Made by a program: the position numbers and the translations under genes | Notes under the pieces: model-generated | Told to the model about the DNA's origin: nothing | Databases searched by the model: none | The model's input: the letters and a program-made list of their open reading frames with translations, nothing else | Shown here: positions 591 to 49,433 of the stretch, in pieces | How positions within the stretch are numbered: position 1 is the first letter of the stretch | Layout: each line of letters begins with the position of its first letter | DNA from: Patescibacteria group bacterium | GTDB lineage: Bacteria; Patescibacteriota; Patescibacteriia; UBA9934 | Assembly: GCA_041660165.1 (NCBI GenBank) | Contig: JBAZWW010000003.1 | Location: forward strand, 4,352-68,351 | Reading direction: 5' to 3' | Length of the DNA stretch: 64,000 nucleotides

Positions 591-3500
591 TTACGGCGCT
601 GTAGGAGTGATGCTTGTAGCCCCCACGCCCAACGGATCAAGTATGACAGAAGCCGGATCTGTTGTCGCGGAAGCGTCAACGAGAGGAACATCGGTCGTGA
701 CGGGATCAACAGTTGATGCAATTGCTGAGGTATCGGTGGCTCCAGCAACTTCTGGTGCAGGGGCAGTCACAGAGTCAACGGGTACGTTAGTATCAGTGGG
801 GGTAGGTGTAACGGTCCCCGTGGCGGGAGTTAAAGTATCAAGGGGAGTAATCATGGGATCAGTCGCAACACTGGTTCCATTATCCGCAATGACGTCAGTT
901 GCGACGGGGCTTGTATCAAGAAGAGGGTCTGGTGCAGGTGCAGAAACAATAGGACTTATTGCTACCGGCTCAAAATCTTTTTGATAGGCAATGACAAGCC
1001 AGTCAACGGCCACGCCGTCCGTGTTAGCTGAATCATGAATCATAAAACCGCCGTTTGATTTGTCCGTGACATATATCTGGCCCGTAATACCCGCAGGCGT
1101 AACAACCACGCGATAGGAGGCGGTGTTTGAAATAACGTCGTTAAACTTTGGATCAATGGTGTCAAACACCACCTCTGACTGACCCATCATCAGCGTACTC
1201 GTTCCAGAAAGTTCGATAGTTTTCTGCCGGCTGGTAACCGCCAGCGTATCAACTAGCTCGTTCTGGTATGAAAGCACGCGCTCAGTGATTACGCCATTAG
1301 TCACAATGTCTCCATTTTGATTGATCTGCCAAGTATTGCCAATGCCCTCAAGCGAACCAACAGAGAGCATAGATCCTCCGTTCATGTTGAGCGAACCGGT
1401 GACATCAAGGTTGGACAGACTATTCATCGGAAGCTGAGAGATGGCCAGATTAGCATCGGGAGCGGAGTTTCCACCCGTGCCGGCGTAATAAGAAGCGCGA
1501 ATGAACACCACAATCTTCCCCTCGCCGGACGGCAGAGGCTCCATGGCATAGCCAAGAATCGGGCCGGCTTTCGTTGCCTTCATGGCATAGCCCGCCTTAG
1601 AGGACGTGGTTAGCGGATCGCCAATCGCCACCGCGCCATTCTCAGCCGAGACGTTCGTGGGCACTCGACCAGAGAGAGCAATCGGATAACTACCGTTAAC
1701 GTAATCGCCGGCCAGGAAGCCGGGGCGAGTTGAAACAACACCAGCCACACTCTTGTCATATGCCGTTGAGCTTGATTTTGCTACAGATTGTTCAGCTCCG
1801 CCAAACACCACCACATCGCCGGCCACGAGTGCGTCGCCGGATGGGAACATTTCTGCAAAGTCATAAGAACCAACGTTCCAACCGGCGGCGTTTGTCTTCA
1901 TGTACCCGGGGCCGGCAGTACTATCATAGAAAATGTAAGCTGTACTTTGCGCGGATCCTCGATCAGACGGGAATAGCTTGCCGGCCACAAACAAGTCGCC
2001 GGCGTTTGAAAAGGCCGCTACTTCCCCGCCAGTTCCGTCCTCAATTGAGAGACGATAATCGCCCAGGCTTGAAACCTTTGTGCGCAAACCCATGCTCACC
2101 GTCTCTGCACTTGAGCCATTCCAAGCCGAACCGTGCATCACTAAGCTGTTCGAGTTCGCAACCGGCGCGCCTGCCGTAGCCACCGCCAGAGCGGAAATAG
2201 TAATTCCGCCAGCAAACATAGGGCTTCCGTCAGGAGCGATGACATCCCCGCCGTACCAACTATTATCAACAAACACCGTAATCGTAGTCATGCCAACGCC
2301 GTTAAAGTTTGCCAGGGCACGCGCGATCACACGTCCTGGTTCCGTAGCCTTCATAGCGTATCCCGGCGTTGAAGATGCGGTCAGATAATCGCCCATCGCA
2401 ATTGGGCCGTTCTCGCTCGTAACGTGTAGTGGCACTCGGCCGTCAAGCGCAATAGGTAACGGATGCGCGCCCTGATCCTTAACGTTCGCACCGATAGTTT
2501 CATTTGGCGAAGTTGAAACAATGCCAAATAGAGTATCCGCGGAAACCGCACGGGTAAGAATTGGCAGGGTCTTCGTGACTGTGCCCGGAAGAATCTCTCC
2601 AGTGAACGCGTTACTTTCTTGAGCTTGATAGGTAAACATGGATCCCGTTAGTGCGACAATGTCGCCGTTACCTGGCGTCCCGTCGGTCTCATACCACTCA
2701 GCATAGTCAGCCGGGGCCGCAGAACAAGCCACAACATCTCGGGTGACATTTGTCGCCGCATCAACGTTCGCACCAGAATGACAAAGACCGTTTGTTGTTG
2801 CGAGGTTATCTAGACCAACAGACACAACACCCGCGGAAGTAACGCCCCACTCTATGCCACCGGTAATTGCCAGGGTACTTGTGGCATTCGCATTGCCAAT
2901 AGTAATTACGTCAGCGGTCGTACCGTTCGTGGCGATATTGATCACATCGGCGCCATCAACGGCGCCGGAGCCGCCAATATTCGTAGTGTGGCCACCGGAG
3001 ACATTGTTCAAATCCAATGAAGTATAACCAGCCACCACCACCCCGCTACCATACGTTGAAACAAATGTTACTCCGTTATTATTCCCTATGGTGATGTTGT
3101 CACCCGCAGTATTGTCAGTAGCAATGTTAATCGTATCCGCATCCGAGGAATTTGCAATATCAATCGTGTCACAGGCAACCGAACCACAAAGCGATACAGA
3201 AGTTGCATTCACATTTCCGATCGCTAGCGCCCCTGCGCCATTCGTATCCAACCCTTGGGCCGCTGCCACGGTAATCCCGCCGCTTGTCGCAACATCAAAA
3301 TTTGAAAAATCAATTGCCGCCCCGGTTCCGAGAATTACATTTGCGCCCACGTTCATTGCATTAACAATCGTGGAATCTGAGGCATCAATCGCGTCCGTAA
3401 AACCTGCAACTCCGGTCAAAATGATGCCATCATCCATCATCTCATTAGAATCTAAGTTACTGAGAGCAATCATGGCATCCGGGGTGCCGGTCAAAGCCAA

Positions 3501-5099
3501 CGGACCGCCGTCGTTAGCATTGGAAAGAGTCATCAGCGTGTTATAGGCCGTGCTTGCGGCCGCATCGTCAGTGAATGTCAGATCAATCACGTTAAGCGCG
3601 CTGTCCACGGAGTGCGTGCTGGCAATCGCTAAGTTCTCAGTTCCAGCTCCGCCTGTAACAAAGTTCATATTCACATCGGAGCCAAAAGTACCGGCATTGA
3701 ACGTGGCGGCGCCAGTCGCATCAATGCTCCAATCATTTCCGCCGGTGAGCACCAATGTGGTAGCCGCATTAGTATTTCCAATATCTACAGCATCTGGAAA
3801 AGCGGCTCCGGTACCGATATTGGTTGTTGTTCCGATTACCAAATTGTCATTAATACTAATTATTCCAGATTCTAGATTGATCGTTGACCCCGCGCTCTCG
3901 CTTCCAATGGAGACCGTATCCCCAGAAGTTCCATTCGTTGCAATGTTGATTGTATTCGCAAGATCAGTACTCACTCCGCCAATGTTAATAGTGGCCGAGC
4001 TAGCGACGGCGTCAAGAAAGTTAAACGTGGCGGATGATGATGTCAGGTCACCGCCGTTGAGCGCAAGATCACTTGCCGAGGTAATGAGTCCCGCGGTTGA
4101 AATATTCCAAGACGCTCCCCCTCCCAGCTGGAACGTCGTACCGGCGCCGGTATTTCCTATTGCTATTGCATCTGCAGTTGATCCTTCCGTAGCGATACTG
4201 ATGGTATTCCCAATATCTGCCGCGACCCCGCCAATATTGATGATCGGTGAGTTGCCAGCACCTTGCAAAAAATTGAACGTTCCCGCTGTCGAAGTGATCA
4301 CCCCACCATTAAGGGCTAGGTTGCCTGGCGTGACAAGACTATTCGAAAAAGATATTTGACCGTCCACCGTAAAAATTAAATCGCCTGTTATGTTCGTAGC
4401 AATAGTGGGGTCAGTAATAGCTCCACCCGAACTAAAAAAACGAAGAAGACCATTCGTAGTGCTATCCGTTCCGATATTCAGCTCCGCAGCGGCCGTATTG
4501 AAATACAGTGTACCTGCCGGCGGCGTGGTTCCTCCAATCACCAAGCCATCTGTGGTAGAGGTTAGGTACGTGGATGCGCCACCATCAGTCAACAAGGTAA
4601 GCGCAGTCGAGTCCAGTCCGTCGAGCGTATCAGCGTTAAGTGCGTACGGTGCCGCGACAATTTGTTTGCGTGGCGTAAGCGCCTCACCATTCACTGTCAC
4701 CTGGAGATATACCCCGGCATTGCTACCGAAAACGGTATCGGCTATTGCCGCGTAAGGAACGCCCGCGGCGGTATCGCCAAGATTTTCCGAAAAAAGCCCA
4801 TCGGTCAGGGTAACGGTTCGAGCCGTCGCGCTCGCACAAGTGGCGGATGAATTCGACCACAGACATGTGCCGGCGGAAAGAGCGTCATAAAACTCGAACA
4901 ACACGCTCGCGGTAGCCGTAGCAATAGGCACTCCGTTCGCATTCAGCAATCTGCCTTGATAACTGGTAATATTTGGGGCTGAGGCGGCCTGTACTGGCAA
5001 CACAAACAACGCGGAGAGGACCGCGTAACCAAGGAAAACAGGCACGAGGAAAATACTCGCGATTCTTTTCACGAATCGCTGAAAGACACGGTGATCCAT
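591..5099 (-). CDS. Giant secreted cell-surface repeat protein (1502 aa), beta-helix/adhesin-like, with a T/P-rich C-terminal tail
   Basis: Long ORF with N-terminal signal peptide (MDHRVFQRFVKRIASIFLVPVFLGYAVLSALFVLPVQAASA). It is extremely Thr/Gly/Ala/Asn/Ser-rich with recurring xIGNTxxxTxxxIGG / INIATxGTxxD(T/V)ITIGN repeats. There is an internal duplicated about 70-aa module (GRVPxxVSxENGxxAxGDxLTxSSxxGYAMKAT) and a C-terminal Pro/Thr/Asp linker. Confidence 0.8.
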   Translation of the reverse strand: MDHRVFQRFVKRIASIFLVPVFLGYAVLSALFVLPVQAASAPNITSYQGRLLNANGVPIATATASVLFEFYDALSAGTCLWSNSSATCASATARTVTLTDGLFSENLGDTAAGVPYAAIADTVFGSNAGVYLQVTVNGEALTPRKQIVAAPYALNADTLDGLDSTALTLLTDGGASTYLTSTTDGLVIGGTTPPAGTLYFNTAAAELNIGTDSTTNGLLRFFSSGGAITDPTIATNITGDLIFTVDGQISFSNSLVTPGNLALNGGVITSTAGTFNFLQGAGNSPIINIGGVAADIGNTISIATEGSTADAIAIGNTGAGTTFQLGGGASWNISTAGLITSASDLALNGGDLTSSSATFNFLDAVASSATINIGGVSTDLANTINIATNGTSGDTVSIGSESAGSTINLESGIISINDNLVIGTTTNIGTGAAFPDAVDIGNTNAATTLVLTGGNDWSIDATGAATFNAGTFGSDVNMNFVTGGAGTENLAIASTHSVDSALNVIDLTFTDDAAASTAYNTLMTLSNANDGGPLALTGTPDAMIALSNLDSNEMMDDGIILTGVAGFTDAIDASDSTIVNAMNVGANVILGTGAAIDFSNFDVATSGGITVAAAQGLDTNGAGALAIGNVNATSVSLCGSVACDTIDIANSSDADTINIATDNTAGDNITIGNNNGVTFVSTYGSGVVVAGYTSLDLNNVSGGHTTNIGGSGAVDGADVINIATNGTTADVITIGNANATSTLAITGGIEWGVTSAGVVSVGLDNLATTNGLCHSGANVDAATNVTRDVVACSAAPADYAEWYETDGTPGNGDIVALTGSMFTYQAQESNAFTGEILPGTVTKTLPILTRAVSADTLFGIVSTSPNETIGANVKDQGAHPLPIALDGRVPLHVTSENGPIAMGDYLTASSTPGYAMKATEPGRVIARALANFNGVGMTTITVFVDNSWYGGDVIAPDGSPMFAGGITISALAVATAGAPVANSNSLVMHGSAWNGSSAETVSMGLRTKVSSLGDYRLSIEDGTGGEVAAFSNAGDLFVAGKLFPSDRGSAQSTAYIFYDSTAGPGYMKTNAAGWNVGSYDFAEMFPSGDALVAGDVVVFGGAEQSVAKSSSTAYDKSVAGVVSTRPGFLAGDYVNGSYPIALSGRVPTNVSAENGAVAIGDPLTTSSKAGYAMKATKAGPILGYAMEPLPSGEGKIVVFIRASYYAGTGGNSAPDANLAISQLPMNSLSNLDVTGSLNMNGGSMLSVGSLEGIGNTWQINQNGDIVTNGVITERVLSYQNELVDTLAVTSRQKTIELSGTSTLMMGQSEVVFDTIDPKFNDVISNTASYRVVVTPAGITGQIYVTDKSNGGFMIHDSANTDGVAVDWLVIAYQKDFEPVAISPIVSAPAPDPLLDTSPVATDVIADNGTSVATDPMITPLDTLTPATGTVTPTPTDTNVPVDSVTAPAPEVAGATDTSAIASTVDPVTTDVPLVDASATTDPASVILDPLGVGATSITPTAP

Positions 5100-5139
5100 G
5101 TATCCTCCACTTAACTGTGATCAAGCGCGACATTCACGG

Positions 5140-7581
5140 TTAACGGCGCGGGCTCCTTCTTATCTCGGTAATCAATTGGGCGAACGATTTTCTCCGTAAA
5201 GCCAGGTTTGACGTAGCTACGTAGTACTCATTCGCGCCAAGAAGAAAAGAGTAGCGCCCTCGGCTATCCGTGAGTGTGGACTCGACAAGTTTATTATACC
5301 GCGGTTCAAAGAGCCGAACGACAACGTTCCCCAGCTGTGAGCGTGTAGCGGACTCAGTAACCAGACCCCAGCCCTTTGGCTTCTTTGGCCAGGCCAAGCG
5401 GATAGAAATAAAGAGCGAGAAAATCTGTACAATGAACATGACGACGGAGAACACGCTCGGCAACGTCAATACTACAAAAAGCGACAGCAAGACGCCGAGT
5501 GGGGACACGATCCGCTGGAAAACGCGAAAGAATCGTTTGAAGCGCAAACGGTTTTCGCCTTGAAACTGCGCTTTCGATGAAGGATCAAGAGGGATGTTCG
5601 CAGCTATCGTCGCATCCTTACTCGTCACACGGATAGCTTGCGTTGTATATACATCAAGAAAAGTGCCATCATCCTTCACGTTCGCAAGGTAAGCGCTTGG
5701 AAAGTTAAAACCGTTTTTTACCACCTTAATAATATATTCACCGGCCTCAGGAACAAACAGAAAATACTTACCTTCGGCGTTGGTAACCACGGATTTGATC
5801 AGCCGATTATCTGTCACTCGATAAAGTCTAACAATCGCCAGCTCAATGGGGATCTTGGTCATGGCGTTATAGACCACGCCAAAGTTTTTTCGTTTTCGCC
5901 TAGAGAATAAAAGCAATGGCGAGGTGATGAGATACTGAAGATACGCACCAAGGTTAAAGCTCGACGCCAGAATAATGGTAGATGAAACCGTAACGGCCGC
6001 GTTCACCGGCCCTGTAACGGTAGCCGTTGCCTGAGCCTCCGGAGACGCCAGCACGTCCGCCACGGCCTGCACAGCAACTGACGCCACCGCGCTTACGGCA
6101 GTTATTGCCTGAACCGCACCTACCGGCAGAATGGCAGAGACAACCGCCGGCACAACAGGAGCTATAGGAGGCACAATGGGAGGCGCCGGAATCTCCGCCA
6201 TTCGGCGCAACATAATTTGTCCGCCAAGAATCGTATTTCCCACAAAAATCGAGGCAGTCACTGACTCATAGCCATCGCGCTCAGCCACCAACGAATATTG
6301 CCCGTTTGGCGCATACCAACCAAAAGTGCCCCGCGCGGTTGATCGTTCGGGGTTCGCCTCTCCGTATTGCTGTGCATCAAAAAGAATCCTGGCTCCGCTG
6401 TCTATTCTATATGCGGTAACAATGACATTCTCTACCGGTACTTCCCGGCCGTCCTCCAGCGTCTCAAGCACGATTCCTGAACTTTGTGCATTGAGCGCAA
6501 TGGGTTCAATCTGCGTACCGCCGGCTTTTCTTGAAACAATAACATTGAGCACCTCATCAGCCCCGGGGGCAGTGATCATGCCGTCATACGTACCCGGACC
6601 TGATTGCGAAAGAACATACGTGGTATCCCCAACCATGACTGAAACCGCGGAGACTGCATCGGGACTTGAAACGGTCACCCGAACAATGGGCGAGGTTCCG
6701 GACAACACATTCACAGAGCCGTTAATGACCGGCAAGTTTAAACCGCCCGACGTCACGCTCACACCCACCTCAATCTGCGCGGTTGGAGTTCCGCCCCCCG
6801 GCGGAGGAGTGCTTGGACTTGGCGCCGGTGTGGGAGCAGGACCTGGCGCAGGGGCCGGAGCTGGTGCTGGTTCAGGCGCGGGGGCCGGAGGCGGTTCCGG
6901 CGGAGGAGGTTCTGGTACTGGTTCTGGAATTGGTTCTGGCGGGGGTGGGGGTGGAGGTGGAGGAGGTGGAGGCGGGAGAGAGTCGCCGGGAGGCGAAGGT
7001 GGAGACGCTACCGTCCCTGACACACCGGACGTCGATGCCGAAATAATCGGAATAGCGATTGACCCATTGTTAAGCGATGTTCCTGCAAGGTCAATGTAAT
7101 ACGTGCCAACCGTGGACGGATTTGTAATTCTATTTGCACCAGTTCCGGATGAGGATGCATTCGTACCAATTTCGATCGTAACCACATGGCCAGCCAATAC
7201 TGACCCTCCGTCTCCAGCGCAAACCGTTAGCGTAACAGTATTCGCCACCCGATCAATAGATACAGCCTCCGCGCCCGAACAATCAGGAGCCGTCGTCAGA
7301 TCCACGGCGTTATCCGCAACATCAACATCATCTTCAATGACAGAACTCACGGTGAAACCGCTTGGAAAAATAAGCGCGATGGTTTCACCGTCGTCCCATC
7401 CGGTAGCCAGCGTAAAAATAAATTTTTGATTCGAAAGCGCGCTCGTCACAAGCGTGCTCGGTTGCGAGGTTAAGGCCGAGACCGTAGCCGCACTCGCGAT
7501 CGACGAAAAAGAAAACATCCCGCTCATCAAAAAGACTGCGGAAAACAAAACAATAGCCACGCGCTTGAAATAGCCACCCAC
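5140..7581 (-). CDS. Secreted/membrane-anchored protein with poly-proline linker and three transthyretin/CarboxypepD_reg-like beta-sandwich modules
   Basis: 813-aa ORF with signal peptide (MGGYFKRVAIVLFSAVFLMSGMFSFSSIASAATV). It has a run of more than 12 Pro followed by PEPxPAP repeats, and C-terminal TM segments. Motifs such as VTAYRIDSGARILFDAQ...YSLVAERDGYE and VRLYRVTDNRLIKSVVTNAEGKYF are typical of carboxypeptidase-regulatory-like domains. Confidence 0.75.
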   Translation of the reverse strand: MGGYFKRVAIVLFSAVFLMSGMFSFSSIASAATVSALTSQPSTLVTSALSNQKFIFTLATGWDDGETIALIFPSGFTVSSVIEDDVDVADNAVDLTTAPDCSGAEAVSIDRVANTVTLTVCAGDGGSVLAGHVVTIEIGTNASSSGTGANRITNPSTVGTYYIDLAGTSLNNGSIAIPIISASTSGVSGTVASPPSPPGDSLPPPPPPPPPPPPPEPIPEPVPEPPPPEPPPAPAPEPAPAPAPAPGPAPTPAPSPSTPPPGGGTPTAQIEVGVSVTSGGLNLPVINGSVNVLSGTSPIVRVTVSSPDAVSAVSVMVGDTTYVLSQSGPGTYDGMITAPGADEVLNVIVSRKAGGTQIEPIALNAQSSGIVLETLEDGREVPVENVIVTAYRIDSGARILFDAQQYGEANPERSTARGTFGWYAPNGQYSLVAERDGYESVTASIFVGNTILGGQIMLRRMAEIPAPPIVPPIAPVVPAVVSAILPVGAVQAITAVSAVASVAVQAVADVLASPEAQATATVTGPVNAAVTVSSTIILASSFNLGAYLQYLITSPLLLFSRRKRKNFGVVYNAMTKIPIELAIVRLYRVTDNRLIKSVVTNAEGKYFLFVPEAGEYIIKVVKNGFNFPSAYLANVKDDGTFLDVYTTQAIRVTSKDATIAANIPLDPSSKAQFQGENRLRFKRFFRVFQRIVSPLGVLLSLFVVLTLPSVFSVVMFIVQIFSLFISIRLAWPKKPKGWGLVTESATRSQLGNVVVRLFEPRYNKLVESTLTDSRGRYSFLLGANEYYVATSNLALRRKSFAQLITEIRRSPRR

Positions 7582-7590
7582 AATTTTAGT

Positions 7591-8466
7591 TTACCTCCGT
7601 CTCCGCACGAAGATGATTATACCAAGCAACAAGACCGCGATGACGATGAACGCCCCGCCAAGCGACGAAACTGGAAAAAACCAAGCATTCGTTACCGCAT
7701 ATTGCGTGTTGCCATCCCAAAGCTCGAACCGATATTTGCCGAATACAAATGGCGAGAAATTCTGTACGCCATCCGGCCATTTTGCGCTCACCGAACGCGA
7801 GGTGCCGGTCGGTAGATGCTTTGGTACATTTGAAAGGAGGAATCGATCGACCTCCCTGCCAAACATATTTACCACGCGCACTTCGTTTGGAACGAAAAGC
7901 GTATCCGTTCCCGAATTTTGGGCGAGTTCTGAAAGGACAATCGGTTTGCCAAAGGAAAAACCAGGAATAGCTGAAAAATTTTGGATCTCTACTCTACTAT
8001 CATTACTCGCATCATTACTAGCAACGTGCACGAACAGAAGTGATGTCAGCGCCGTTCGCACAGAACCGGATTCATTACCGGCCGAGCCCTCAGTGACAAG
8101 TACCGCAATCGTAGGTGCCGACTCGGAAAATTCCTGCGGAATTGTCACGGAAATATTGACAGTCTTTTTCTCAGTAGCCGCAAGGGTGAATAATGACGGC
8201 GTAGCAATGACGCCCGAAGAAAGCAAAGGATTAAGCGTCCCTAATGAAAGATCCTCCGCATCCCCCCCGAATTCAGCAGACAAAAATGAAACGCGATAAC
8301 TCGCTTCTTTTGTAGAATTGTTTGTCACAACAATAGTGGCAGATGCGGATTCACCAATTTTCACCCGCAGATCGCTTGATTGAGGATTCACCGTAGTCGC
8401 AAAAGAAACACATGGCGCGCCAAGCAAACTAAGAAAGGTGAGCGCCAATAAAAATCGTGAAATCAT
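7591..8466 (-). CDS. Secreted protein with C-terminal transmembrane anchor and RRRR tail
   Basis: 291-aa ORF with N-terminal signal peptide (MISRFLLALTFLSLLGAPCVSFATT). It ends with a hydrophobic segment (GGAFIVIAVLLLGIIIFV) and then RRRR. It is tightly packed (2-nt gap) with flanking surface-protein genes on the same strand. Confidence 0.65.
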   Translation of the reverse strand: MISRFLLALTFLSLLGAPCVSFATTVNPQSSDLRVKIGESASATIVVTNNSTKEASYRVSFLSAEFGGDAEDLSLGTLNPLLSSGVIATPSLFTLAATEKKTVNISVTIPQEFSESAPTIAVLVTEGSAGNESGSVRTALTSLLFVHVASNDASNDSRVEIQNFSAIPGFSFGKPIVLSELAQNSGTDTLFVPNEVRVVNMFGREVDRFLLSNVPKHLPTGTSRSVSAKWPDGVQNFSPFVFGKYRFELWDGNTQYAVTNAWFFPVSSLGGAFIVIAVLLLGIIIFVRRRR

Positions 8467-8468
8467 AT

Positions 8469-9389
8469 TTAGTAATTACCAACAAACACGAAGGTTAGCG
8501 TTTGCGAATAGCTTCCGCCGGCCTGCGTAGCACTAACACCAACCTTCAGCGTCACAAAATCCCGCGCTTTTAGCGAGTTGTCTCCCCTGCTTGCCACCTG
8601 TTGAAGCGAAGTTGTGATAGCCGTATCCTGCGTATCAAATGTTGAGCTGGCAAGCGAGGTGTCTGAGGAGCGAGCGCCATACTCGGACGACCCCGCATCA
8701 ACTGAGCCATCTCCAACATCAGAAATCGTGTTGCCCCCATCCGATGGATTATGATTTTCGTATAAAAAAACACTATAGCCATTTGAAACATCCGCGGATG
8801 AGTCCCAACCAACGATACCAGTTGTAACTACACTACTTGAAAAGGTTCCAAGGGGAAGTGCGGTGCCAGACAGCTTATAAACGTAGTCATTCGATCCATC
8901 TATGGTCGGCGCTACACCGCCATCATGGAATTCATCCACGGTCAACGTAGAGCCTCCCACGACGGTCACTTTACCGATGGCCGAGACCTGAGAAGCACCG
9001 AGGTCCTGAACCACCGCGACGTAATCGCCTACAGAGTAGTCAACCGTGGACGTCACCGTTACCGTCGTTGAGACAAGTAGAGTGGTTGCTACCTGGGTTG
9101 AAGTATTCTCTGAGAAAACCTGGAACGCGACCGTGGGGTCATAAATACCGCCTCTATACCCCCCATCTTCGCGGTAGGAGGACGAAGAACCAATTCCCTG
9201 ATTAACTCCGATGGTGTCATGAAGCTTGTAAGAGGCGGAGGAACTCGTCTCACTTCCCCCATTTCCGACGCTATCCCACTGAATCTGATAATTGCTTGAG
9301 GACATCATTGACTCAGCCCTAAATGGAGCTAATGTTAGCAGAAAAAGAGATGCTGTAATGAAATAGTGATAACCGATATTCCTTCCCAT
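8469..9389 (-). CDS. Secreted Ser/Thr/Gly-rich protein
   Basis: 306-aa ORF with N-terminal signal peptide (MGRNIGYHYFITASLFLLTLAPFRAES). It has paired SSNYxIxWDSVGNGG...SSASYKLHDTIG motifs and is the first gene of the minus-strand surface locus. Confidence 0.6.
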   Translation of the reverse strand: MGRNIGYHYFITASLFLLTLAPFRAESMMSSSNYQIQWDSVGNGGSETSSSASYKLHDTIGVNQGIGSSSSYREDGGYRGGIYDPTVAFQVFSENTSTQVATTLLVSTTVTVTSTVDYSVGDYVAVVQDLGASQVSAIGKVTVVGGSTLTVDEFHDGGVAPTIDGSNDYVYKLSGTALPLGTFSSSVVTTGIVGWDSSADVSNGYSVFLYENHNPSDGGNTISDVGDGSVDAGSSEYGARSSDTSLASSTFDTQDTAITTSLQQVASRGDNSLKARDFVTLKVGVSATQAGGSYSQTLTFVFVGNY

Positions 9390-9422
9390 ATCGCTTATTG
9401 AGTACTATAGGTGTTCACCCCT

Positions 9423-9791
9423 TTATCCACAAGATAAAACTGTGGACAAACCTACGAACTGTAATGAAAAATCGTCATTTATACACAGATATTTTGTCTA
9501 CACCAGTGTAGCCAAATAAAGTTATCCCCAGCAATCGTTTTCATTACAGACTGTTACCAACTAATTCTATTTTTCCACCCACCAAACCATAGCAACCATC
9601 AGTTCACGTTAGGTTGCGGGTATATAAAATGGAATTCTTGGGAGGTAATCCGACCGGAATGATATTTTGTATACCTGCGACCAGCCAAGAAATTGGCGAT
9701 ACAAGTCGCTACGCATCTCATCACACATGGAACTTACAGCGTAGTTATCCTTCTCATACACATGTTATCCACAGTTTGTGGCGCTATCCAC
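9423..9791. promoter_or_regulatory. Cluster of DnaA-box-like sites in a 480-bp intergenic region upstream of the surface-protein operon
   Basis: Perfect TTATCCACA at 9423-9431 and 9764-9772. CTATCCACA at 9783-9791. TGTGGACAA at 9441-9449. A TATACACAGAT motif near 9484. Confidence 0.4.
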
Positions 9792-9837
9792 AGAGCTCAC
9801 TCAATAATACGTTCCATATGGGACATCCAAACACGAC

Positions 9838-9872
9838 AAACAAAAAACCTCCTACAAATTAGGAGATTTTCT
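9838..9872 (-). terminator. Rho-independent terminator downstream of tRNA-Ala
   Basis: Hairpin AACCTCCTacaaatTAGGAGATT; on the minus strand it is followed by TTTTTTG. Confidence 0.4.
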
Positions 9873-9873
9873 A

Positions 9874-9949
9874 TGGTGGACCAATGGGGATTCGAACCCC
9901 AGGCCTCAGCAATGCGAATGCTGCGCTCTACCAACTGAGCTATTGGCCC
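9874..9949 (-). tRNA. tRNA-Ala (anticodon CGC)
   Basis: Reverse complement is GGGCCAATAGCTCAGTTGGTAGAGCGCAGCATTCGCATTGCTGAGGCCTGGGGTTCGAATCCCCATTGGTCCACCA. It folds as a cloverleaf with a G3:U70 Ala identity pair. Anticodon loop is TTCGCAT. TTCGAAT T-loop and encoded CCA are present. Confidence 0.85.
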
Positions 9950-38035: not shown

Positions 38036-38125
38036 TAACTGTGGATAACTTGGGTATAAGTAGGATAACTTGCACACTTCTTGTACTCAAAGGGTGAACA
38101 CCCCCTGTACTCGATTATCCACATG
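38033..38125. promoter_or_regulatory. DnaA-box cluster (second oriC-like element) with adjacent AT-rich stretch
   Basis: TGTGGATAA at 38040-38048. Three GGATAACTTG-type repeats (38033-38070). TTATCCACA at 38115-38123. AT-rich 38150-38205 (agatatataaattgtttacaatttgtac). Confidence 0.4.
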
Positions 38126-38596
38126 ACTAACGTATTTGGCTAATCCTAGAGATATATAAATTGTTTACAATTTGTACTCAGGTTATATACTGAATCCTGT
38201 AATCGTTCTTTCTAAATTCCGTCCTGTGGGTAAAACCACGGGAGTGACTCGGGGAAATTGCCGAAGCCCCACAAGATCTTCGGGATGACCTCACTTGCGC
38301 TCCTCACTCCATGGCTCCGCGGTTGATGGCGGTAGCATTTCGGGAAACCGTCACCTCATGGTCAGGGTAGGGCAATCAGTCAGTAGGTTTGGCAGGCAAG
38401 TGCATTCTGGCGTTGTGTCTGGTGTACGAGGACCCTCGCACTCCGAACCCAATGTCAGAGTTCATGAACCCCCAATCCGCCCGGTCGGGCTATGCTCGAC
38501 CACGGGGACTCGATCGCGGGGATATCTATCAGAAATCCCTTTGCAACCGAGCCCCCTTTTCTTTTTCAGGCGAATCGTATATCGTCTATCAATCAT

Positions 38597-38980
38597 ATGG
38601 CCAAAGCTATTTCCAAAGCATTTATTGAAGAGATGAAAGCTCTTCTCGTTGCCGAGTCCGCAAAACTCGAAACCGAACTTTCGCATATTGCCCACCGTAA
38701 CCCCAAAGAAAACGGGGAATTGATTACGGATTATAAAGACGTAGGAAGCGATGAAGGCGAAAACGCTTTTGAAGTTGCCCAATTTAGCGACAATCTTTCA
38801 CTCGAACAGGAGCTGGAGTCCGCTCAAAAGGACGTAAACTCGGCCTTGAAAGCTATTGAGAAAGGATCCTACGGCACCTGCAAATACTGCAAACAGCAAA
38901 TTTCCGAAGCCCGCCTGCGCATTCGCCCAACCTCAACGTCCTGCGTGGCCTGTAAGAAAACACTCACCCAAGAGCTCTAG
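38597..38980 (+). CDS. DksA/TraR-family C4-type zinc-finger protein
   Basis: Internal start MAKAISKAFIEEMKALL.... C-terminal CKYCKQQISEARLRIRPTSTSCVACK (CxxC-x17-CxxC); about 127 aa. Confidence 0.6.
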   Translation: MAKAISKAFIEEMKALLVAESAKLETELSHIAHRNPKENGELITDYKDVGSDEGENAFEVAQFSDNLSLEQELESAQKDVNSALKAIEKGSYGTCKYCKQQISEARLRIRPTSTSCVACKKTLTQEL

Positions 38981-46383: not shown

Positions 46384-46572
46384 TTACACAGATCGCAAAA
46401 ACGACGACAGATTTAACACAGATATGAGGTCCGATCCATGTCCATCTGTGTTTATCTGTGACAGAGGGCGATCTGTGTTCATCGAATGTCGAGTTACCCA
46501 CAGCCTATCCACACTTATCCACAACTTCACAGAAAGCTCAACACTTGCAATAGTTTGTGGGCTGTGGATAGA
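46384..46572. promoter_or_regulatory. oriC-like region upstream of dnaA: DnaA boxes plus ACACAGAT-type repeats
   Basis: CTATCCACA 46505-46513. TTATCCACA 46516-46524. TGTGGATAG 46564-46572. Five (T/A)ACACAGAT / ATCTGTG repeats at 46384-46485. Confidence 0.55.
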
Positions 46573-46616: not shown

Positions 46617-48020
46617 ATGGAAATTGGTTCGCCCATGAATACTCACGAACTTTGGCAGGCTGTTCTGGCCCGCCTTGAACTCAAGCTGAGTAAAGCGCAT
46701 TTCAGTACGTGGTTCCGCCAAACCTTTGTTTGCGAATACCGAATAGGGGAGGCCATCATTGCCGTGCCGAACAACATTGCCCAGTCGTGGCTGGAAAAGA
46801 AGTATTACAAAGACATCCTTGAAGCACTCCAGGCCGTGACGGACCAGCCGATCCGTAAACTAACGGTTCGCATTGAAACAAAGCCCCTTCCGCCACAACC
46901 CATTCAGCTCACCGCGCAGAAGCCCGCCCCCGCTGATGACTACGGTTTCCTGCCAACCAATGGCGCAGAGCCAATGCAGGCGCCAACGGGCAACATTTCC
47001 GTTAATCCCATCTACACCTTTCAAACATTCGTCGTCGGCAAACAGAACGAACTCGCCCACGCCGCGTCACAGGCCGTCTCCTCTCAACCCGGCGGAACGT
47101 ATAACCCGCTCTTCATTTATGGAGGCGTCGGACTCGGCAAAACCCACCTACTGCATGCCATAGCCAACGAAATCCGCAGAAAGTGGCAAAACGCCCGTAT
47201 CATGTATGTAACGTGCGAGCATTTCACGAACGACTTCATTCACTCTATCCGCTCTGGTAAGGGCAAGGAATTCAAGGATCGCTACCGCAATGTTGATCTC
47301 CTGCTGATCGACGACATTCAGTTTATTACCGGCAAAGAGGGGACTCAGGAAGAGTTCTTCCATACCTTTAACACGCTCCACCAGGACAACAAGCAGATCG
47401 TCATCTCATCAGACCGTCCACCGAAATCGATCGCCGGCCTTGAAAAACGCCTGCAGTCCCGGCTCGAATGGGGCATGCTCGTAGACGTTGGCACGCCGGA
47501 TCTCGAAACCAGGATCGCCATTCTCGAAAAGAAGTGTCTCGAGAAAGGCTTTCCTCTAAATAAGGAGATCCTGCAGTACGTTGCCTCAACTGTTTCATCG
47601 AACGTTCGCGAACTTGAAGGCGCTTTGAACAAAATCATCGCCGTTCACCAGTTCCGCAACATGGAAGCAACCCTAGACACCATCAAACCGATTATTTCCA
47701 CGTTTGAGTCCGAAAACATCAAGAAAACTGTGACACCCAAGCAGGTCATCATGATCGTGGCGGCCTATTTCGACATTCAGATTGAGGACGTACTTGGCAA
47801 GTCTCGTGAAAAACGCCTAGCCTTCCCCCGACAGATCATCATGTTCTTACTTCGCGAGGAAATGAAGTCCTCGTACCCCACCATTGGCACAGAACTTGGC
47901 GGTAGAGATCACACCACTGCCATGCACGCACACTCAAAGATCATGAATATGCTTGATTCTGATGATAAACTTCAGAAAGACCTCGAGCTTATCAAGCAAC
48001 GCCTGTACACCGGTGTATAA
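46617..48020 (+). CDS. dnaA: Chromosomal replication initiator protein DnaA
   Basis: 467 aa. ELWQAVLARLELKLSKAHFSTWF (domain I). Walker A GGVGLGKTHLL. Walker B LLLIDDIQF. Sensor/box VII. C-terminal DNA-binding helix (HTTAMHAHSKI). The start may be the internal Met at 46635. Confidence 0.9.
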   Translation: MEIGSPMNTHELWQAVLARLELKLSKAHFSTWFRQTFVCEYRIGEAIIAVPNNIAQSWLEKKYYKDILEALQAVTDQPIRKLTVRIETKPLPPQPIQLTAQKPAPADDYGFLPTNGAEPMQAPTGNISVNPIYTFQTFVVGKQNELAHAASQAVSSQPGGTYNPLFIYGGVGLGKTHLLHAIANEIRRKWQNARIMYVTCEHFTNDFIHSIRSGKGKEFKDRYRNVDLLLIDDIQFITGKEGTQEEFFHTFNTLHQDNKQIVISSDRPPKSIAGLEKRLQSRLEWGMLVDVGTPDLETRIAILEKKCLEKGFPLNKEILQYVASTVSSNVRELEGALNKIIAVHQFRNMEATLDTIKPIISTFESENIKKTVTPKQVIMIVAAYFDIQIEDVLGKSREKRLAFPRQIIMFLLREEMKSSYPTIGTELGGRDHTTAMHAHSKIMNMLDSDDKLQKDLELIKQRLYTGV

Positions 48021-48063: not shown

Positions 48064-48295
48064 CGTGGATAAGGGGAGGGATAACCAGTAGGATAACGCG
48101 GTGCATAAATGGGGGATAGATCGAGGAGCTTCAAACCTCGCTGACTTGCCCACCATCCGTCCAGTGCTCCGCGCAGGTTTTCTACACAACCGATAATCTC
48201 AAATAGGCCGATAGATAAAAGGCTTGCCGAGTTATCCGCCTTATCCACAGACTCTCTATTGTTACTGGTTCTTATATATAAATAATTCAGAAGCA
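48064..48295. promoter_or_regulatory. oriC between dnaA and dnaN: DnaA boxes and AT-rich DUE
   Basis: CGTGGATAA 48064-48072. GGGATAACC and AGGATAACG. TTATCCGCC 48232-48240. TTATCCACA 48241-48249. AT-rich cttatatataaataattcag 48271-48292. Confidence 0.55.
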
Positions 48296-48299
48296 ATCT

Positions 48300-49433
48300 G
48301 TGAAACTCTCCTGCACCCGTGAAAATTTACACCAAGGACTTTCCATTGTGAGTCATATAAGTGGAAAATCAGTGAACCTGCCCATTTTGAACAATGTCCT
48401 CTTTAGGGCGGATATCAGTGGACTCAAGCTAACGGCAACTAACCTGGACATGACCGTCACTTGCTCGGTCAGAAGCAAGGTAGACCAGCCCGGCGAGTAC
48501 ACCGTTCCCGCTAAGCTCATTGCCGATTACGTTTCGTTACTGCCGGACGAACGGGTTGATCTTGATCTTCTTGATACTTCGCTTTCTGTCGTCTGTGGAT
48601 CCTCGAAAACGAAAATCAACGGTTTGGCTCCAAGCGAGTTCCCACTCGTTCCTCAAGTTACAGGCGGAGTGAAATTCATCGTGCCCGTAGCCCCGTTTGA
48701 TAGCGCCCTCGGTCAGACGCTCTTCTCGGTTTCAACAAGCGAGGCCCGGCAGGTACTTACCGGTGCGTATCTTGAGTTCAACGGCGACAAGAAAATGCTC
48801 ACCATTGCGGCGACAGACTCGTACAGGCTGGGCGAGCGTCAGATTGCGCTTACGGGCGACATCATGGGCGAGCGCAAGGTTGTGGTCCCCTCAAGGACGC
48901 TGGCCGAACTGCGCCGGATTATTGGCGTTCTGCGCGACGCGGTCGAGATTCCCGAAACGCTCGAAATAGAAATTACCGATAACCAAGTTGCTTTCCGCTA
49001 CGGAAGCGTTGAGCTATCGAGCAGAACAATCGACGGCGTTTATCCCGATTATCGACAGATTATCCCCAAGACGAGCATGACAGAGATCATCGTTAATAAA
49101 ACGCTGTTCTCTCAGGCTGTACGGCGTGCGAGTCTCTTCTCGAAGGCCGGCCTGTTCGATGTAAAGCTCGAAGTGAAGGCCGGGACGAACGAAGTTGTCC
49201 TCTCGGCTACGGACGCTGGCAGAGGTGAGCACACAGTGGCAGTCGAGGGCGAGGTGACGGGCACAGACAACGCCGTCACGCTCAACTATCGCTATCTCTT
49301 GGACGGTATTAGCGCCATGAACTCGGATAAAGTAATCGTGAAGTTCATAGACGCTACAAACCCCTGCCTAGTTGTCCCGAACGAAAAGCCAGACGAGAAA
49401 TATCTGTACATTGTGATGCCGATTCGGCAATAG
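48300..49433 (+). CDS. dnaN: DNA polymerase III subunit beta (sliding clamp)
   Basis: 377 aa. MKLSCTRENLHQGLSIVSHISGKSVNLPILNNVLFRA... shows the three-domain beta-clamp pattern and follows dnaA directly. Confidence 0.9.
   Translation: MKLSCTRENLHQGLSIVSHISGKSVNLPILNNVLFRADISGLKLTATNLDMTVTCSVRSKVDQPGEYTVPAKLIADYVSLLPDERVDLDLLDTSLSVVCGSSKTKINGLAPSEFPLVPQVTGGVKFIVPVAPFDSALGQTLFSVSTSEARQVLTGAYLEFNGDKKMLTIAATDSYRLGERQIALTGDIMGERKVVVPSRTLAELRRIIGVLRDAVEIPETLEIEITDNQVAFRYGSVELSSRTIDGVYPDYRQIIPKTSMTEIIVNKTLFSQAVRRASLFSKAGLFDVKLEVKAGTNEVVLSATDAGRGEHTVAVEGEVTGTDNAVTLNYRYLLDGISAMNSDKVIVKFIDATNPCLVVPNEKPDEKYLYIVMPIRQ

Follow-up and report, generated by a model that had tools for sequence, protein, structure and literature searches.

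The subject of this study is a 64-kb stretch of the genome of an ultrasmall bacterium of the Patescibacteria, Candidatus Uhrbacteria (64,000 nucleotides of contig JBAZWW010000003.1, assembly GCA_041660165.1; hereafter the window, with positions counted from its first letter) and, within it, an intergenic spacer of 484 bp (9390-9873). The spacer lies between the start codon of a minus-strand operon (9389) and the gene for tRNA-Ala(cgc), and it holds the densest cluster of DnaA boxes in the 64 kb: 370 bp contain six boxes that depart from the consensus at one position at most. The operon (591-9389) comprises four genes, the first of which encodes a secreted pilin-like protein of 306 amino acids (aa). 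An earlier reading made from the letters of the window (the sequence-only reading) had placed the boxes between tRNA-Ala and a surface-protein locus, and that intergenic setting stands. Taking the DnaA box consensus as TTATCCACA, with TTWTNCACA as its relaxed form, we mapped the following features in and beside the spacer.

9404-9432, minus strand: putative core promoter of the operon, with a -35 element TTGTGG (9432..9427), a 17-nt spacer and a -10 element TATAGT (9409..9404)
9423-9431, plus strand: perfect DnaA box TTATCCACA, antisense to the operon
9441-9449, minus strand: one-mismatch box, plus strand TGTGGACAA, minus strand TTGTCCACA, sense relative to the operon
9459-9470 and 9538-9549: perfect 12-nt inverted repeat, CTGTAATGAAAA / TTTTCATTACAG, flanking three boxes and the repeat at 9493-9516
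9479-9487, plus strand: one-mismatch box TTATACACA, overlapping a ACACAGAT motif (9483-9490)
9493-9516: inverted repeat TTTGTCTAC-N6-GTAGCCAAA, its left half being a two-mismatch DnaA box (9494-9502)
9522-9530, plus strand: one-mismatch box TTATCCCCA
9571 (start): two-mismatch box, the others of this grade starting at 9494 and 9754
9721-9736 and 9808-9823: 16-nt inverted repeat, 81% complementary, flanking the distal boxes
9754-9762, plus strand: two-mismatch box TCATACACA, 11 bp ahead of the distal perfect box
9765-9773, plus strand: distal perfect DnaA box TTATCCACA
9784-9792, plus strand: one-mismatch box CTATCCACA, 19 bp past the distal perfect box
9836-9873, minus strand: strong intrinsic terminator of the tRNA-Arg and tRNA-Ala genes
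9874-9949, minus strand: tRNA-Ala(cgc), the upstream edge of the spacer

The inventory thus comes to two perfect boxes, four with one mismatch and three with two, all within 9423-9792; three of them match the relaxed form. Every motif listed by the sequence-only reading is present, with three coordinates shifted by one (9765 rather than 9764, 9784 rather than 9783, and 9483 rather than 9484), and the box at 9522-9530 is an addition to that list. Box density is far above chance. The window contains 6 perfect boxes where 0.39 are expected, and 27 boxes with at most one mismatch where 11.2 are expected. The other clusters of the latter grade are smaller, with four boxes upstream of dnaA and three in a cluster near 38 kb. 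Among 200 first-order Markov simulations the biggest cluster had three boxes and none reached four. Boxes at this density by chance throughout the genome, which the sequence-only reading had said would speak against its proposal, are not what we see: outside the three clusters we found about 0.2 boxes per kb, both in the window and in 555 kb of DNA from relatives.

The promoter assigned to the operon places an ATG start codon 14 nt after the -10 element TATAGT; transcription would be expected to begin near 9397. In nine loci of the window's clade, TTGTGN and TAT(A/T)GT lie 17 bp apart, or 18 bp in L005 (read by eye). We aligned the region with its closest relatives, L082 (82% protein identity), L081 (79%) and L001 (71%). 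A block TTGTCCACAG-N8-CTTGTGGATAAAGGGGTGAACAC-N2-TATAGT is nearly invariant in the window, L081 and L082; mean column identity of the whole alignment, L001 included, is 59%. The -35/-10 assignment gains support because a motif resembling a ribosome binding site falls between the -10 element and the start codon in all three relatives (GAAGGTG in L081 and L082, AGGAGG in L001; read by eye). Since the minus strand of the perfect box at 9423-9431 reads TGTGGATAA, this box overlaps the putative -35 element; it is unchanged in L081 and L082 and has one mismatch in L001. Together with the box at 9441-9449 it forms a head-to-head pair with 9 bp between the two. At the distal end of the cluster, the boxes at 9754-9762 and 9765-9773 are both kept in L081 and L082, a tandem pair resembling them is present in L001, L007, L010 and L012-L014, and the box at 9784-9792 is matched in none of L081, L082 and L001. 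At the dnaA promoter of the same genome a box covers the spacer and the -10 of TTGCAA-18-TAGATT (read by eye), an arrangement that corresponds, by analogy, to the classical autorepression layout.

We then compared the region across a wider set of species. Scanning a single genome for each species with an alignment of the 306-aa protein yielded 80 relative loci (L001-L080; 36-62% GC, 37-71% protein identity), with flanks spanning a few kb each. Homologues of the protein are found in Patescibacteria records, and the loci are mostly labelled Candidatus Uhrbacteria or Patescibacteria group; NCBI places the related loci in the phylum Candidatus Uhriibacteriota of the Parcubacteria group. Most loci share one gene order: holA, a divergent rmuC, tRNA-Arg(cct), tRNA-Ala(cgc), the spacer, the pilin-like gene, and homologues of the 813-aa and 1502-aa proteins of the operon. 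When up to one mismatch is allowed, box density reaches 3.1 per kb over 860 bp around the upstream region and falls to 0.21 per kb across the remainder of the loci. In the last 200 bp ahead of the start codon there are 142 boxes (63 perfect), or 1.84 per locus compared with about 0.05 per 200-bp bin elsewhere. Measured against dinucleotide shuffles, the 250-bp upstream segments contain 150 boxes where 6.9 are expected, and 68 perfect boxes where 0.17 are expected; a box lies within 250 bp of the start codon in 73 of the 76 scorable loci, for an expectation of 6.6. Boxes are present also in loci that have no tRNA gene within 1.5 kb upstream (e.g. L033, L056 and L057). By these sequence comparisons, then, the boxes are retained upstream of the same gene throughout Candidatus Uhrbacteria. 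The conserved information is limited to the 9-mer plus a weak G at position 10, and both orientations occur; confinement to the 9-mer argues for a monomeric DnaA site rather than a larger operator or palindrome. Most relatives have one to three boxes.

The boxes of the relatives also keep their distance from the promoter. Many of these loci have a clear promoter, TTGAC(T/G)-17-TATAAT, that ends 6-21 nt before the start codon, so any leader would be very short or missing; the term leader, under which the sequence-only reading had placed the cluster, gives way to promoter or upstream control region. Counted from the first base of the -35 element, antisense boxes lie at -108 to -110 in 19 loci, and sense boxes at -50 (6 loci), -61/-62 (7), -92 (4) and -102 (2). 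The box at 9441-9449 in the window sits where most relatives have their sense-oriented proximal box. Spacings between boxes of 11, 42 and 41 bp are near whole helical turns. Fixed spacing of this kind is expected of a site that has to be oriented toward RNA polymerase or a partner protein; for a plain DnaA sink it would be unnecessary. A palindrome, GCTAA-N3-TTAGC, occurs at -23 in 17 loci and looks like the site of a further factor. Further upstream, relatives carry the repeat TTTGTCTAC-N6-GTAGACAAA, and often a 16-bp palindrome, TGTTTCACGTGAAACA, which is the parS sequence.

A second cluster away from the origin, at 38040-38233 of the window, proved as deeply conserved as the first. It precedes an unannotated structured RNA gene of about 370 nt (approximately 38198-38566, plus strand), which lies between the cluster and a DksA-like gene. 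In 80 metagenome loci found with the DksA-like protein (L083-L162), one 200-bp bin contains 126 boxes, or about 1.85 per locus, and 98 of these are perfect. Offsets from the -35 element, taken from 40 loci, are either -122/-123 and -91/-92, both antisense, or -111/-112 antisense together with -83/-84 and -48/-49 sense, and in part they match those at the pilus promoter (-110 and -50). A box-bearing promoter architecture shared by two unrelated transcription units speaks more strongly than any other result for a role of the boxes in transcription. The promoter class with GCTAA-N3-TTAGC occurs at both the pilus operon and the 38-kb RNA gene. Its shared elements are GCTAA-N3-TTAGC, TTGAC, a GT(G/A)TTCA spacer and TATAAT (L011-L073, e.g. 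L024 and L066; window 38136-38148). We also noted, matching by eye, a shared element of about 25-28 bp, AAAGGGGTGAACACC-TATAGTACTCA, that adjoins a DnaA box at 9399-9422 (minus strand) and at 38089-38113 (plus strand).

We favour, with moderate confidence, the reading that the cluster is an upstream control region of the pilus-like operon, built on DnaA binding sites and modulating its promoter. In the mechanism we propose, DnaA would occupy the two perfect boxes (9423 and 9765) and, at high levels of DnaA-ATP, would spread cooperatively onto the weaker boxes at 9441, 9479, 9494, 9522, 9754 and 9784. The proximal head-to-head pair of the window's clade would cover the -35 element (TTGTGG|ATAA), and occupancy would for that reason hinder, or less probably recruit, RNA polymerase. 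Transcription of the pilus operon would then track the level of DnaA and the replication state. In the window, the overlap with the putative -35 favours repression. The boxes of most relatives, at about -85 and -145 from the predicted start site, would be more typical of an activator or an architectural factor, which leaves the sign of regulation unsettled. The sequence-only reading had suggested that DnaA, or a factor with a DnaA-box-like site, acts at the surface operon; this suggestion gains weight from boxes in 73 of 76 genomes, fixed offsets, the -35 overlap and a DnaA that keeps its contact residues, and it stays conditional as to binding and effect. A bolder reading, possible but held tentatively, makes DnaA a stereospecific promoter factor for a small conserved regulon, comprising at least the pilus-like operon and the 38-kb RNA gene. 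The promoters of this regulon would share one layout, with boxes some 50 and 110 bp ahead of the -35.

Several points weigh against these proposals. Consensus and conservation are the sole basis for the -35 and -10 elements, and GTGAAC (9418..9413) could also serve as the -35. Relatives have anywhere from one to seven boxes, which makes a cluster as large as the window's a lineage-specific feature. Since the TTTGTCTAC-N6-GTAGACAAA repeat and, in relatives, the GCTAA-N3-TTAGC palindrome and parS are also conserved, other proteins must act in the spacer. A single mode of action cannot be assumed, because the boxes overlap the -35 element in the window's clade and lie far upstream of it in most relatives. 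DnaA binding, the sign of regulation, the transcription start and any effect on replication are all deduced from sequence and comparison.

The Patescibacteria, or Candidate Phyla Radiation (CPR), are bacteria with tiny genomes that account for a large part of bacterial diversity. To our knowledge, all cultivated members live attached to host cells, and almost nothing is known of their regulation. If DnaA does control the operon, these cells would link pilus production and attachment to hosts with the replication cycle, with no cell-cycle regulator dedicated to the task; if the broader proposal is true, reduced genomes would use the replication and segregation machinery as a cell-cycle regulator, and attachment organelles would be tied to the replication state. 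The pilus control region of many species has parS centromere sites interspersed in it. The locus offers a testable regulatory link, in which sites for a universally conserved protein are locked, phylum-wide, into the promoter region of a probable surface-filament operon. Even if DnaA does not bind, it would still be a well-defined and deeply conserved regulatory module.

Promoters regulated by DnaA include that of dnaA itself, E. coli nrdAB, B. subtilis sda, ywlC and yydA, and Caulobacter gcrA, ftsZ and podJ. As in these cases, the spacer has consensus boxes in or just upstream of a sigma-70-type promoter, and the window has one on the putative -35. We know of no case among them in which DnaA controls a pilus or surface operon, nor of a description, for known DnaA regulons, of rigid -50/-110 geometry at two unrelated promoters. 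The nearest parallels to the present cluster are DnaA-regulated promoters in general and the clusters of DnaA boxes near the B. subtilis origin. What sets it apart from known systems is the constant partner gene, rigid geometry at two loci, a pilus-like target and interleaving with parS. At P. aeruginosa gidAB-parAB, boxes are likewise reported to precede a promoter (PMC13438810). A search of full-text literature returned no paper joining the term DnaA box with Patescibacteria, and of five papers returned for DnaA, the Candidate Phyla Radiation and oriC none dealt with this subject by title.

An explanation compatible with promoter control is that the cluster serves mainly as a DnaA sink or modulator of initiation, any effect on the operon being incidental; as the principal account we consider it unlikely. 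The models for it are E. coli datA and the B. subtilis clusters beyond the origin (such as yydA-yycS, ywlC-ywlB, yqeG-sda and ywcI-vpr). The latter are intergenic and mostly origin-proximal, and together they restrain initiation; several overlap promoters, where the effect of DnaA on the adjacent gene is repression or activation (Okumura et al. 2012, PMC3245932). The window resembles that arrangement in having at least two non-origin clusters within 40 kb of oriC. The spacer is itself origin-proximal, 37 kb from dnaA, its six to nine boxes exceed those of oriC upstream of dnaA, and the parS sites in the same spacer of relatives mark it as part of the origin domain. Most relatives, however, keep one to three boxes, too few for effective titration, and the boxes are locked to promoter offsets, a constraint that titration does not require. 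In Bacillus the clusters adjoin different genes in each species (PMC3245932), whereas the partner gene in Uhrbacteria is constant across the candidate phylum, the boxes stand at fixed promoter offsets and the target is pilus-like. The spacer also differs from the E. coli loci of this kind. datA and DARS2 need sites for IHF (datA for DnaA-ATP hydrolysis), and DARS2 also for Fis. The IHF consensus WATCAANNNNTTR, which is that of E. coli, has five matches in the window and none in 9390-9873, and on this ground we set aside a datA-type locus. The E. coli loci are non-origin clusters acting on DnaA, datA by titration and ATP hydrolysis and DARS1/DARS2 by nucleotide exchange (PMC3245932); unlike the spacer cluster they are not promoter-locked, and sequence similarity to them was neither expected nor seen. 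By analogy, an additional role as a DnaA sink is plausible in this lineage, in which an origin-proximal locus would have grown to six to nine boxes; sink function is unlikely as the ancestral reason for the sites.

It is more doubtful still that a different transcription factor reads 9-mers resembling the DnaA box, with DnaA uninvolved. Both non-origin clusters share a promoter class (boxes, GCTAA-N3-TTAGC, TTGAC, a GTGTTCA spacer and TATAAT), which could mean a dedicated activator. Yet the motif is the exact universal DnaA 9-mer with no extra conserved flanks, and oriC of this genome is made up of copies of it, likewise often with G at position 10. DnaA of this genome has the base-contact residues of its domain IV intact (R399, P423, D433, H434, T435 and H439 in E. 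coli numbering, read against E. coli DnaA, with 41% identity over the full length), and a second protein of identical specificity would have to compete with it. That the boxes belong to a structured RNA, be it a long leader, a riboswitch or a small RNA, and are conserved at the RNA level is very improbable. Nested inverted repeats do flank the boxes, and the distal part of the spacer folds with z = -3.1; this value may largely reflect the hairpin of the tRNA terminator, which makes up the first 33 nt of the fold, and the proximal part gives z = -0.94. The boxes occur in both orientations and at varied positions, and the promoter lies downstream of most of them. The half-sites of the conserved repeat at 9493-9516 vary without compensation (by eye), which suggests a protein-binding site rather than an RNA hairpin. 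At the spacer Rfam recognises the two tRNA genes and, on top of them, two weak matches below threshold, and nothing else.

The density of the cluster, its one oriC-type ACACAGAT motif and the parS of relatives in the same spacer would also suit a second or relic replication origin, and the sequence-only reading had offered an origin-like element as an alternative. We hold this to be highly improbable, in view of where the skew changes. The genes concerned are as follows.

46617-48020: dnaA, with DnaA_N, ATPase and C-terminal helix-turn-helix domains (all three Pfam)
48300-49433: dnaN

The only sign change of the GC skew in the window is at 48-49 kb, from negative to positive, and the cumulative minimum falls at 47-49 kb. 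Because the skew switches there and boxes lie on either side of dnaA (46494-46571 and 48064-48249; the same 9-mer, often followed by G), we locate oriC at dnaA/dnaN. At 9.4 kb the skew does not change sign, being negative on both sides, and no strongly AT-rich tract adjoins the boxes: the most AT-rich 30 bp at the spacer cluster reach 77% AT and include a box, compared with 83% beside the box before dnaN. These results do not bear out an origin-like element. The spacer is like oriC in combining one ACACAGAT with consensus and degenerate boxes, some of which share an orientation and an 11-bp spacing (9754/9765; compare 46494/46505/46515); it is unlike oriC in having no skew switch, no clearly AT-rich unwinding element beside it and no neighbouring dnaA or dnaN, and its boxes are tied to a promoter at fixed geometry. 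The DnaA-trio pattern had no match at any cluster, oriC included, and is therefore uninformative.

The 80 loci contain 100 parS-like sites with at most two mismatches, all between -1750 and 0 relative to the gene. parS lies within 700 bp upstream of the gene in 41 of 77 loci, and L059 has ten perfect copies. From these sequences, the spacer between tRNA and pilus genes is the parS region, and so the probable centromere region, of many Uhrbacteria chromosomes; the parS that relatives carry there points, indirectly, to the spacer as part of the origin domain. Of these loci only L024 comes from a complete chromosome (OZ246408.1), and there some 45 kb separate it from the start of the record. Loci with at least five DnaA boxes are all without parS, and the overall association (p = 0.06, uncorrected for phylogeny) is a trend only. 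The window itself has no match to the parS palindrome TGTTNCACGTGAAACA within three mismatches anywhere in its 64 kb, and neither ParA nor ParB turned up in tblastn with the B. subtilis proteins Soj and Spo0J, a search confined to the same 64 kb and for that reason not decisive. The arms of the repeat at 9721-9823 resemble degenerate parS half-sites (compared by eye).

The operon downstream of the spacer consists of the following genes, the order of which is kept in relatives.

8469-9389, minus strand: 306-aa secreted pilin-like protein, the first gene
7591-8466, minus strand: 291-aa Fn3-like protein with a hydrophobic C-terminal membrane anchor (Fn3-like match below the cut-off)
5140-7581, minus strand: 813-aa protein
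591-5099, minus strand: 1502-aa fibre-like protein, its N-terminus resembling a fibre protein

Searches of the four proteins against Pfam gave no match for the first and fourth and generic domains only for the others. Two NCBIfam models match the 306-aa protein below their cut-offs: CPR_pilus_PamT (28.4 bits, E = 9.5e-7; cut-off 240) and CPR_Pam_pilin_C (21 bits, E = 2.8e-4; cut-off 55). In an AlphaFold model (pLDDT 79.8) the protein has an N-terminal helix, which we take from the model as a probable signal peptide, followed by a beta-rich body; residues 25-84 are highly conserved yet unstructured in the model. Foldseek searches of the Protein Data Bank (PDB) returned weak matches to phage tailspike and tail proteins and to the pilins CfaB, CsuA/B, PapA and FimA, the pilin matches all being weaker than E = 1e-3, with target-normalised TM-scores of 0.43-0.55.

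A Pam pilus operon has been described in CPR bacteria, with pilins mainly from Saccharimonadia and Microgenomatia (Troman et al., bioRxiv 10.64898/2026.03.03.709456); the words Uhrbacteria, DnaA, tRNA and promoter are absent from the text of that preprint. The window's operon is like it in its pilin-like first gene with a conserved unstructured N-terminal stretch, a beta-rich body and weak matches to donor-strand-exchange pilins. Its second gene, with an Fn3-like domain and a C-terminal anchor, recalls the membrane-anchored Pam chaperones, and a giant fibre-like protein comes last. It is unlike the Pam family in that the pilin scores far below the cut-offs (28 against 240 bits, and 21 against 55). 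The surface locus is a probable pilus operon of the CPR type whose kinship with Pam would at most be distant, with membership of that family not established. On the strength of its pilin-like first gene and the weak NCBIfam and fold matches, we refine in this way what the sequence-only reading had labelled simply a surface locus.

Other elements of the spacer are conserved to differing degrees. The repeat at 9493-9516 is found across Uhrbacteria, in the form TTTGTCTAC-N6-GTAGACAAA, just upstream of the boxes in most relatives; its half-sites look like weak DnaA boxes (TTGTCTACA), and it may be the operator of some dimeric factor or a pair of low-affinity DnaA sites. The 12-nt inverted repeat that spans 9459-9549 is partly kept in L001, L080, L081 and L082. 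The terminator at 9836-9873 stops tRNA transcription just ahead of the distal boxes and so parts the tRNA unit from the box region; a small open reading frame (ORF) on the plus strand, 9614-9862, overlaps the terminator region.

The ACACAGAT motif occurs eight times in the window, compared with 1.3 expected, and mostly at oriC. Four copies lie upstream of dnaA (46386-46478), two past rmuC (11424 and 11452) and one at 9483-9490. The region ahead of the orthologous gene in relatives shows no enrichment of the motif, which rules it out as a conserved co-motif of the boxes; for the same reason it may be specific to this genome. Shorter copies of the ACAGAT type, identified by eye, continue past rmuC to about 11515.

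The RNA gene at 38 kb has a promoter with -35 TTTACA (38164-38169) and -10 TATACT (38186-38191), a conserved 5' motif, CGTTCTTTC, and a putative intrinsic terminator whose T-run extends to 38566 (read by eye). An alignment of 27 sequences gave 45 predicted pairs with RNAalifold, 32 of them with compensatory changes. No Rfam 15 family matched this RNA in the window or in 13 relatives. The DksA/TraR-like ORF that follows (38492-38980, plus strand) is matched by its homologues only from residue 36-45 on, and its first 35 codons overlap the 3' part and the terminator of the RNA gene. For both reasons, the DksA-like gene likely starts at the in-frame ATG at 38597 rather than at 38492.

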